A stretch of DNA of 50,143 nucleotides, taken from sequence record OV696612, one strand, 5' to 3'. The translations under genes and the position numbers were made by a program. Shown here one piece after another: positions 32,915 through 33,260 of this stretch. Under the pieces are notes generated by a model. That model did no database searches. It worked only from the letters and a program-made list of their open reading frames with translations, and was not told the origin of the DNA. Within the stretch, counting starts at the first letter, position 1. The number at the start of each line of letters is the position of its first letter. Source of the DNA: Escherichia phage Perceval.

Positions 32915-33096
32915 AACTAAGCCGCCTCGTTGAAGCGACTGAGGTATGAGGTGTTGAGTTGATTTCAGCTGGTCACACCGACGTTCACGCGTCCGCTTCA
33001 CCCCTCGCACTCCCCGGAGCCTGCTGAAATTCAAGCTGCGGATCTAAGCGGTCATCGCAACGGTGAATCAGGTGATTGCGTATCGTTGTGTTGTTG

Positions 33097-33125
33097 CGAC
33101 ATGGTGATAATAGCTATTGCTATTG
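33097..33125 (-). promoter_or_regulatory. candidate pL promoter (-35 TTGATA, 17-bp spacer, -10 TATTAT) overlapping operator-like repeats
   Basis: Minus-strand TTGATAcagccaatagcaatagcTATTAT; the spacer carries CAATAGCAATAGC repeats shared with the cI-cro intergenic region. Confidence 0.55.
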
Positions 33126-33260
33126 GCTGTATCAATACTTATTGCTATTGATTGATGTGTTTTGATATTAACTGTTTGATAGCAAAAAGAATTAATTTTG
33201 TGACTTGTATCGCATAGCGATAACTGAAGGGAGGATGTGGTGGTTTTTTGAACGGTGTGT

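Follow-up and report, generated by a model that had tools for sequence, protein, structure and literature searches.

The window, that is, the whole 50,143-nucleotide stretch of Escherichia phage Perceval (sequence record OV696612), contains an early region that is ~99% identical, across the aligned parts, to those of Escherichia phages 4A7, 4C10, 1W, and 3W, of which 4A7 belongs to the genus Bievrevirus. The overall order is int...exo-bet-gam-kil, the intergenic region under study, a terminator, two accessory genes, and cI, with cro-cII-O-P running in the opposite direction beyond cI. The features that define this setting are the following.

28037-29179, minus strand: int, followed along the minus-strand map by exo, bet, gam, and kil
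32624-32830, minus strand: kil (KilR-like), first gene of the pL operon, from phrog_294 and the annotations of relatives
32831-33099, minus strand: untranslated pL leader of ~270 nt, from pL to kil
33273-33300, minus strand: intrinsic terminator of the cI-accessory operon, equivalent of lambda t_imm (terminator scan: CCCGGCCGTCGTGCCGGG and then the T-run TTTTCTTTTG)
33309-33815 and 33837-34859, minus strand: two accessory genes in the rexAB position, between terminator and cI
34982-35674, minus strand: cI repressor, 230 aa (Pfam: HTH_3 in the N-terminal and Peptidase_S24 in the C-terminal part)
35785-36012, plus strand: cro, WP_000184665.1, YdaS family (Pfam PF15943, E = 9.6e-15)
36037-36582, plus strand: cII, YdaT family (Pfam PF06254, E = 7.6e-30), with O and P beyond

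Given this gene order around cI, the terminator, and the kil-to-int operon, the region is placed exactly as OL/pL is in lambda. As in an early-left control region, a sigma-70-type promoter lies beyond the terminator of the cI operon and aims away from cI, into the kil, recombination, and int genes. The terminator is also kept in 4A7 and in the related phage PhiR47_2, and the start of cI agrees with the annotations of 4A7 and RefSeq (WP_001295669.1). In keeping with self-cleavage, the cI sequence shows an Ala-Gly bond (VSAGPG), a serine (GDSM), and a lysine (VKRL), and the recognition helices of Cro (QPTVWRW) and cI (QPTIWRL) are alike. Short ORFs over the region (33145-33312, minus; 33205-33387, plus) were dismissed as coding; the segment 33231-33280 varies among relatives, length included.

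Downstream of pL, the analogy with lambda is incomplete, as neither an N gene nor a nut site is present. We found no N-like ORF after pL, the first ORF downstream being kil, and no boxA/boxB pair corresponding to nutL; on the rightward side, the gap between cro and cII is 24 bp. Searching the pL leader for known RNAs yielded no Rfam match at the gathering score, only a sub-threshold ALIL match on the wrong strand, and the fold of the whole leader has a z-score of -0.24. A put antiterminator RNA of the HK022/HK639 type in the 270-nt leader is therefore unsupported by Rfam, by the fold, and by BLAST, which gave no similarity to HK639 or HK022.

Using a promoter scan, we located the elements of pL.

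33130-33135, minus strand: pL -35, TTGATA, 3 bp of which are shared with OL2
33107-33112, minus strand: pL -10, TATTAT, of which TATTA is supplied by the left half-site of OL1
33100-33102, minus strand: predicted pL start, placed by the geometry of the -10, 5-7 nt past it

The near-consensus minus-strand promoter proposed in the first-pass annotation, TTGATA-17 bp-TATTAT, is thus present at 33135..33107 and agrees with the consensus at 10 of 12 positions. This match is not significant by itself, as promoter-like matches occur at chance frequency in this AT-rich stretch (13 in 3.6 kb, with 8.4 +/- 3.1 expected); it is the context and the conservation that make the promoter credible. The -10 is nearly invariant among 34 OL variants of one backbone, and in other phage backbones it reads TATTAT or TATTGT.

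Overlapping these elements, we find three copies of an 18-bp site.

33108-33125: OL1, TAATAGCTATTGCTATTG, over the pL -10 and spacer; second-best non-OR match in the window of a matrix trained on OR sites
33133-33150: OL2, CAATACTTATTGCTATTG, abutting or overlapping the pL -35; best non-OR match of the same matrix
33153-33170: OL3, TGATGTGTTTTGATATTA, a weaker match

The centres of OL1 and OL2 are 25 bp apart and those of OL2 and OL3 20 bp. By their coordinates, OL1 and OL2 overlap the -10 and -35, respectively, as expected of sites whose occupancy occludes RNA polymerase. The repeats that had been noticed in the spacer and flanks of the promoter are present, one as CCAATAGCAATAGC (minus strand, 33126-33113), which occupies the pL spacer, and one as TTATTGCTATTG (plus strand, 33139-33150), immediately upstream of the pL -35.

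The same type of site recurs between cI and cro, where it is arranged around two further promoters.

35735-35752: OR1, TAATACGCATTGCTATTA, over the pR spacer and -10
35710-35727: OR2, AAACACGTTTTGCTATTG, between the pRM -35 and the pR -35; identical in Salmonella phage BTP1
35685-35702: OR3, TTATACGCTTGCGTATTG, over the pRM -10 and spacer
35725-35753, plus strand: pR, TTGTTA-17-TATTAT with TG upstream of the -10 (promoter scan); OR1 over the -10, OR2 against the -35
35682-35710, minus strand: candidate pRM, TTGACC-17-TAAATT (promoter scan), ending 7 nt before the cI ATG (35674)

The centres of OR1, OR2, and OR3 are exactly 25 and 25 bp apart, OR2 abuts the pRM -35, and the -10 hexamers of pL and pR are identical (TATTAT). 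Both pRM hexamers are conserved among 46 OR variants. No Shine-Dalgarno sequence was found upstream of the cI ATG, which, together with the end of pRM only 7 nt before that codon, points to a leaderless cI message as in lambda.

The sites shared between OL and OR are 18 bp long and take the form YAATAC-N6-CTATTR. Their relationship is recovered by search, as a matrix built from the OR sites only and run over the 50 kb on both strands returned OL2 (17.5 bits) and OL1 (16.8 bits) as the top remaining 18-mers, the best match outside both control regions reaching 12.0 bits; a reciprocal matrix trained on OL likewise recovers the OR sites. From 59 distinct sites of related loci, we derived the consensus YAATACGYATTGCTATTR. 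Positions 1-5/14-18 and 9/10 of the 18-mer are mirror-symmetric, with overlaps of 0.80-0.97 (outer five, 0.83-0.97), whereas positions 6-8/11-13 are conserved yet asymmetric, the pairs 6/13, 7/12, and 8/11 overlapping by 0.29-0.46. This asymmetric conserved centre of 6 bp is not explained by a simple symmetric dimer model. The 9-mer TTGCTATTG, which had been reported to recur between cI and cro, corresponds to positions 10-18, i.e., to the right and better conserved half of the site. It has three exact copies in the 50 kb on both strands (33117, 33142, and 35719), all within the two control regions, and one-mismatch copies at 35744 and 35770(-) in the cI-cro set. The count is unremarkable, as 3 of 100 shuffles reach three matches; the clustering is what counts. 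The copies of the 9-mer are real, but the repeat is better read as an 18-bp dyad, YAATAC-N6-CTATTR, than as a 9-bp direct repeat. Pairing of half-sites across the spacers (CTATTR-N7-YAATAC) was ruled out, since the gaps between units vary (7, 2, 6, and 11 bp) but all sites have exactly N6 between their two halves. We also looked in OL for the YdaT box (TTGATT-N6-AATCAA) and found none within two mismatches; its sole perfect copy is at 42436.

The phage PhiR47_2 provides a natural exchange of this module. Its flanks are near-identical to those of the window, with the pL leader on one side and a palindrome (33208-33222) and the terminator on the other, and it diverges completely only over 33100-33192. 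Identity ends at 33099/33100, so that the left breakpoint of the immunity module coincides with the predicted pL +1, 7 nt past the -10. The cI of PhiR47_2 is identical from about residue 85 onward and different through the helix-turn-helix, its cI-cro region is likewise replaced, and its cII is 98% identical. Thus, OL, OR, and the N-terminal domain of cI have been swapped together between conserved flanks. The matrix trained on the window finds nothing above 9.3 bits in PhiR47_2, whose OL and OR appear, by eye, to share a motif of their own of the ACAAC...GTTGT type.

Conversely, the sites are retained where the DNA-binding domain of the repressor is retained. The N-terminal domain of cI is 87.8% identical to those of ST104, SE1, ST160, and BTP1, which is below the 92% rule of thumb (PMC2629481); in BTP1, the identity over the whole of cI is 85%, the helix-turn-helix (residues GMSQGALAKASGVAQPTIWRLTSGNARGSTKIVEIANALGV) is the same, and Cro is 69% identical. 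In the 5.7-kb BTP1 locus, the six top matches of the window-trained matrix are OR1-3 (spaced 25 and 25) and OL1-3 (25 and 20), and a pL of the form TTGATA-17-TATTGT lies in the equivalent place, followed downstream by N and by boxA/boxB (CGCTCTTTAAC plus GCGCTGACAAAGCGC). Villafane et al. 2008 (PMC2629481) listed the 'ST104' type as a repressor specificity of its own that had not been studied, and the cI of BTP1 has been treated as the prophage repressor, co-transcribed with bstA from one start site (PMC7067206). In the literature searched, we found no description of the operators of the ST104/BTP1 immunity type. Judged by these sequence likenesses, the repressor specificity is that of the ST104/BTP1 type and not that of lambda, 434, or P22.

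In viral contigs, the OR2 18-mer was found at at least 120 loci. Among those listed, we distinguished 60 OR and 70 OL variants, spread over at least six pL-leader backbones that are unrelated to one another; site offsets of 0/25/45 are kept in all of them, and in most also 69. Within one backbone (34 OL and 46 OR variants), we expressed variability as the fraction of variants off the consensus per position. On the left, it amounts to 0.007, 0.038, and 0.034 for OL1, OL2, and OL3, and to 0.09, 0.37, and 0.06 for the OL1-OL2, OL2-OL3, and OL3-OL4 spacers, OL4 being a possible fourth site. On the right, it is 0.025 for OR1 and 0.027 for OR3, and for the spacers 0.025 (OR3-OR2), 0.30 (OR2-OR1), and 0.22 (OR1-OR0, where OR0 is a possible fourth site). 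That the OR3-OR2 spacer varies no more than the sites themselves is probably due to the pRM -35, which lies within it. In E. coli VG888, a natural 25-bp tandem duplication comprises exactly one operator-plus-spacer unit (the OL2 unit). The OL module is present at at least 90% identity in 524 of 5426 complete E. coli genomes, and the three genomes inspected combine it with the same cI protein and different cargo between cI and OL.

Two readings that dispense with a dyad operator over a true promoter have to be weighed against these data. The pL hexamers might be an incidental product of AT-rich operator half-sites, with the true leftward start elsewhere, e.g., further upstream; TATTAT and TTGATA are built largely of operator half-sites, and the chance frequency of promoter-like matches would be in keeping with this. 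We consider it very improbable, however, in view of the identical -35/17/-10 geometry in backbones with unrelated leaders, of the pR -10, which is the same hexamer and is built likewise, of the module breakpoint just past the pL -10, and of the stretch from 32500 to the terminator (33283), which contains no other minus-strand promoter match of at least 9/12. Alternatively, the repeats could be head-to-tail direct repeats (TATTG-N-TATTG or TTGCTATTG units) bound by a non-dyad protein of the P2/186 or iteron type. The exact TATTG tandem TATTGCTATTG and the asymmetric centre, in which TTG at positions 10-12 is without a mirror partner, would suit such a protein, but the mirror symmetry of the outer five positions and the constant YAATAC-N6-CTATTR between gaps of varying length would not. 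Moreover, the sites occur in either orientation among phages, with OL1 of BTP1 on the plus strand and its OL2 and OL3 on the minus strand, and the repressor domain resembles that of 434, whose family binds DNA in dimeric form. We therefore give very little credence to direct repeats and retain the 18-bp dyad over a probable pL.

Beyond the three main sites, both control regions contain further elements, which are less clearly assigned.

33177-33194, minus strand: OL4, possible fourth site, TAATTCTTTTTGCTATCA, with a variant GAATTR half-site and a matrix score of only 12-16 bits
33169-33181, minus strand: exact IHF core consensus, WATCAANNNNTTR, overlapping OL4
33208-33222: palindrome TATCGC-ATA-GCGATA (TATCGCATAGCGATA), single copy in the window
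35764-35781, minus strand: OR0, possible fourth right-hand site, TAATTCCTATTGGTATTA, with a GAATTR half-site; third-best non-OR match of the OR-trained matrix

OL4 has a variability of 0.008 among the OL variants and is present in BTP1, 24 bp from OL3. The overlapping IHF core has two matches in the window, the second of which is beside int, and OL4 may serve as an operator, as an IHF site, or as both. OR0 is positioned downstream of the pR start, over the ribosome-binding site of cro, and its half-sites are conserved while its centre is variable. As for the palindrome, the first-pass annotation was right about its presence, although it runs beyond 33215, where the control region had been taken to end; its inclusion among the repressor sites does not hold. 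No second copy with fewer than two mismatches exists in the window, the palindrome is retained in the heteroimmune PhiR47_2, and it is absent from the BTP1-type backbones, and we rejected it as a CI operator on these grounds. Being unique in the window and surviving the immunity swap, it is better regarded as an immunity-independent element of the backbone. Its variability is 0.006, compared with ~0.086 in the flanks 33100-33107 and 33223-33234, and nothing else in the area is as well conserved as the palindrome and 33195-33207 taken together (0.002-0.006). The palindrome is overlapped, at 33199-33214, by a CRP-like TGTGA-N6-TCGCA, the only match in the window to TGTGA-N6-TCRCA, a pattern chosen after inspecting the sequence and with a relaxed half-site, for which 13% of shuffles give at least one match.

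Taken together, the block 33169-33229, with OL4, the IHF-like core, and the palindrome or TGTGA-N6-TCGCA, might constitute a second input to pL, through IHF, possibly CRP, or a regulator encoded by the backbone, instead of a CI site. The single TGTGA-N6-TCRCA of the window falls here, as does an exact IHF core match of which the window has just one more, conservation in the region is highest in this block (0.002-0.008) and extends across immunity types, and pL of lambda is stimulated by IHF bound upstream. Against this stand the post hoc choice of the patterns, with the relaxed CRP half-site and its frequency in shuffles, and the BTP1 sequence, in which the TTR part of the IHF core and the palindrome are missing; a centre ~106 bp upstream of the start would also be unusual for CRP. 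We regard a second input as a tentative and rather unlikely proposal, and it would add to the OL/pL explanation without replacing it. More speculative still, and in our estimation doubtful, is a general picture of the control regions of N-less lambdoid phages in which a GAATTR fourth-site pair (OL4 and OR0), the conserved block 33195-33229, and the IHF-like core would feed host signals or a backbone regulator into pL, and in which the asymmetric centre of the operator would allow a given site to be read in different ways by CI and by Cro.

Overall, our data strongly point to 33100-33194 as the OL/pL region of a lambdoid, Bievrevirus-like (4A7-like) prophage, in which CI would bind shared 18-bp sites and pL would drive the kil-to-int operon; we assign this reading a probability of roughly 0.9. 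Directly supported are the sites and their spacing, the way they overlap the promoters, their presence in both OL and OR, the fact that they change together with the DNA-binding domain of CI, and their conservation. The reading follows from the position of the region, the site shared by OL and OR, the co-variation in PhiR47_2, and the conservation in BTP1, and the first-pass proposal of an OL/pL-type control region for a repressor with a specificity unlike those of lambda, 434, and P22 is borne out on the same four independent grounds.

As the likely mechanism, modelled on lambda and CP-933P in its CI binding, cooperativity, OL-OR looping, start site, and SOS induction, pL would initiate near 33100-33102 and produce the ~270-nt leader followed by kil, gam, bet, and exo, towards xis and int. 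CI dimers would occupy the 18-bp dyad sites, and occupancy of OL1 and OL2 would exclude RNA polymerase and block pL, while OL3, and perhaps OL4, might engage in a long-range interaction with OR ~2.6 kb away. OR1-OR3 would govern pR and the leaderless-type pRM, and Cro, of the YdaS family, presumably recognises these sites as well. RecA-stimulated self-cleavage of CI through its S24 domain would then derepress pL.

This immunity type is common, being found in E. coli genomes and, with the same specificity, in Salmonella phages such as BTP1 of the epidemic ST313. The operator consensus and promoter map can be used to predict homo- and heteroimmunity among these prophages, to annotate an otherwise blank intergenic region, and to design reporters or inducible switches, and the map delimits the cargo hotspot from cI to OL, whose accessory and defence genes differ between genomes. 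The region is a well-supported instance of an ordinary left switch of the lambda type, from which the lambda paradigm gains nothing conceptually.

A motif comparison with characterised operators, the check suggested at the outset, sets the 18-bp site apart from the 17-bp lambda, 14-bp 434, and GTTTAGTAA-type CP-933P sites. Among solved DNA-binding domains, that of the 434 repressor is the closest (E = 1.5e-5). The 434 half-site is ACAAT, and the outer half-site here likewise contains AAT; in contrast, the 434 operator has 14 bp (ACAA-N6-TTGT) and the present one 18 bp with a conserved asymmetric centre, and the recognition helix is QQSIEQL in 434 and QPTIWRL here. The architecture is that of lambda. 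OL/pL lies on the far side of cI and of the accessory genes transcribed with it, and each operator region has three main sites, their centres 20-25 bp apart, of which the first covers the -10 and the second is at the -35; in OR, the second also abuts the pRM -35. Further points in common are a leaderless-type cI start, a self-cleaving S24 repressor, and ~2.6 kb from OL to OR. The differences from lambda are the 18-bp YAATAC-N6-CTATTR in place of the 17-bp TATCACCGC-type site, the lack of N and nutL, the 24 bp between cro and cII, which leave no room for tR1, the YdaS and YdaT families of cro and cII, and the possible fourth sites at both operators.

The PaaR2/YdaS/YdaT system of CP-933P shares the YdaS-type Cro and YdaT-type CII, a leaderless PRM, PL hexamers matching those of PR, OL1-3, and accessory cargo in the rexAB position. 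It has OL1-3 plus four 18-bp repeats at OR (PMC8630535; PMC9986795), to which binding has been demonstrated by EMSA and footprinting, and its PL reporter is repressed by PaaR2 or YdaS (PMC8630535). The specificity differs, as the operator consensus there is based on GTTTAGTAA and here reads YAATACGYATTGCTATTR; PaaR2 is another type of repressor than the S24 CI, and the cargo there is the ParE2/PaaA2 toxin-antitoxin. The Salmonella P22-like phages BTP1, ST104, SE1, and ST160 differ in turn by having N, nutL, a lambda-type CII, and a P22-like backbone without the palindrome at 33208-33222, whereas they are alike in the DNA-binding domain of cI, OR2, the 18-bp sites, and the spacings. In BTP1, the accessory gene bstA lies between cI and OL, comparable with the accessory genes here.

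The leftward cI operon, which runs from the repressor gene cI to an intrinsic terminator, carries further genes between these two points.

33309-34859, minus strand: a co-directional gene pair flanked by cI and the terminator, at the rexAB position

One member of the pair encodes a 168-aa predicted membrane protein (phrog_16807) and the other a 340-aa protein (phrog_3482); Pfam and PADLOC returned no matches for either. Among other genomes with the same cI, the cargo at the cI-terminator position differs and includes GevT/GevA, HipA-like, DUF3037 and BamE-like proteins; in the Salmonella phage BTP1, BstA occupies the equivalent position in place of the phrog_16807/phrog_3482 pair. 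Because this position swaps cargo between genomes, the pair is a candidate accessory or defence module within a cargo hotspot. The intergenic region between cI and the accessory gene also contains a 44-bp palindrome (34910-34953; 22-nt arms, no gap, 86% complementary).

In the leftward pL leader upstream of kil, about 60 nt (32889-32949, minus strand) are kept in HK225 (97%) and phi80 (85%). The HK225 counterpart lies directly upstream of an annotated kil gene, while that in the phi80 record is unannotated and comes shortly after the N gene. For the 81 nt at 32880-32960, which include this stretch, the predicted fold has two hairpins (z = -3.6), and these enclose an in-frame upstream ATG (32914). 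The conserved stretch may be a kil-linked regulatory element. Further upstream lies OL2, the second predicted repressor site of the pL/OL region. In E. coli VG888 the OL2 unit and the -35 element are naturally repeated in tandem by a 25-bp duplication (L008 about 4530-4580, corresponding to window 33126-33150), giving one additional operator copy.

Hairpins are found in both early operons; the leftward one lies within the operon, upstream of xis and int. The phage contains no N gene and no nut site, so pL transcripts, if they pass this leftward hairpin, would do so without N.

30112-30126, minus strand: terminator-like hairpin, GGAGCTACAGGCTCC then TTTTTTATTA

On the rightward side, where 24 bp separate cro from cII, a GC-rich hairpin (GCCGC-N7-GCGGC, 36004-36020) extends across the stop codon of cro and is flanked by inverted repeats, TTAACGC...GCGTTAA, whose arms resemble, with one mismatch, the TATCGC arms of the palindrome beside OL (33208-33222). 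The IHF core consensus is matched exactly at two places in the window: at 33169-33181 (minus strand) in the OL region, and at 27660-27672 (AATCAAACGGTTG), about 370 bp beyond int on its 3' side, a position at which one would expect the IHF site of an att site.

Using the YdaT box motif from PMC9986795 and PMC11879457, we found a single zero-mismatch copy within the window, TTGATTATGAATAATCAA (42436-42453), which is intergenic and upstream of a 151-aa ORF (42618-43073). The YdaT-type CII could act at this box, by analogy with the control of paQ or pI in lambda.
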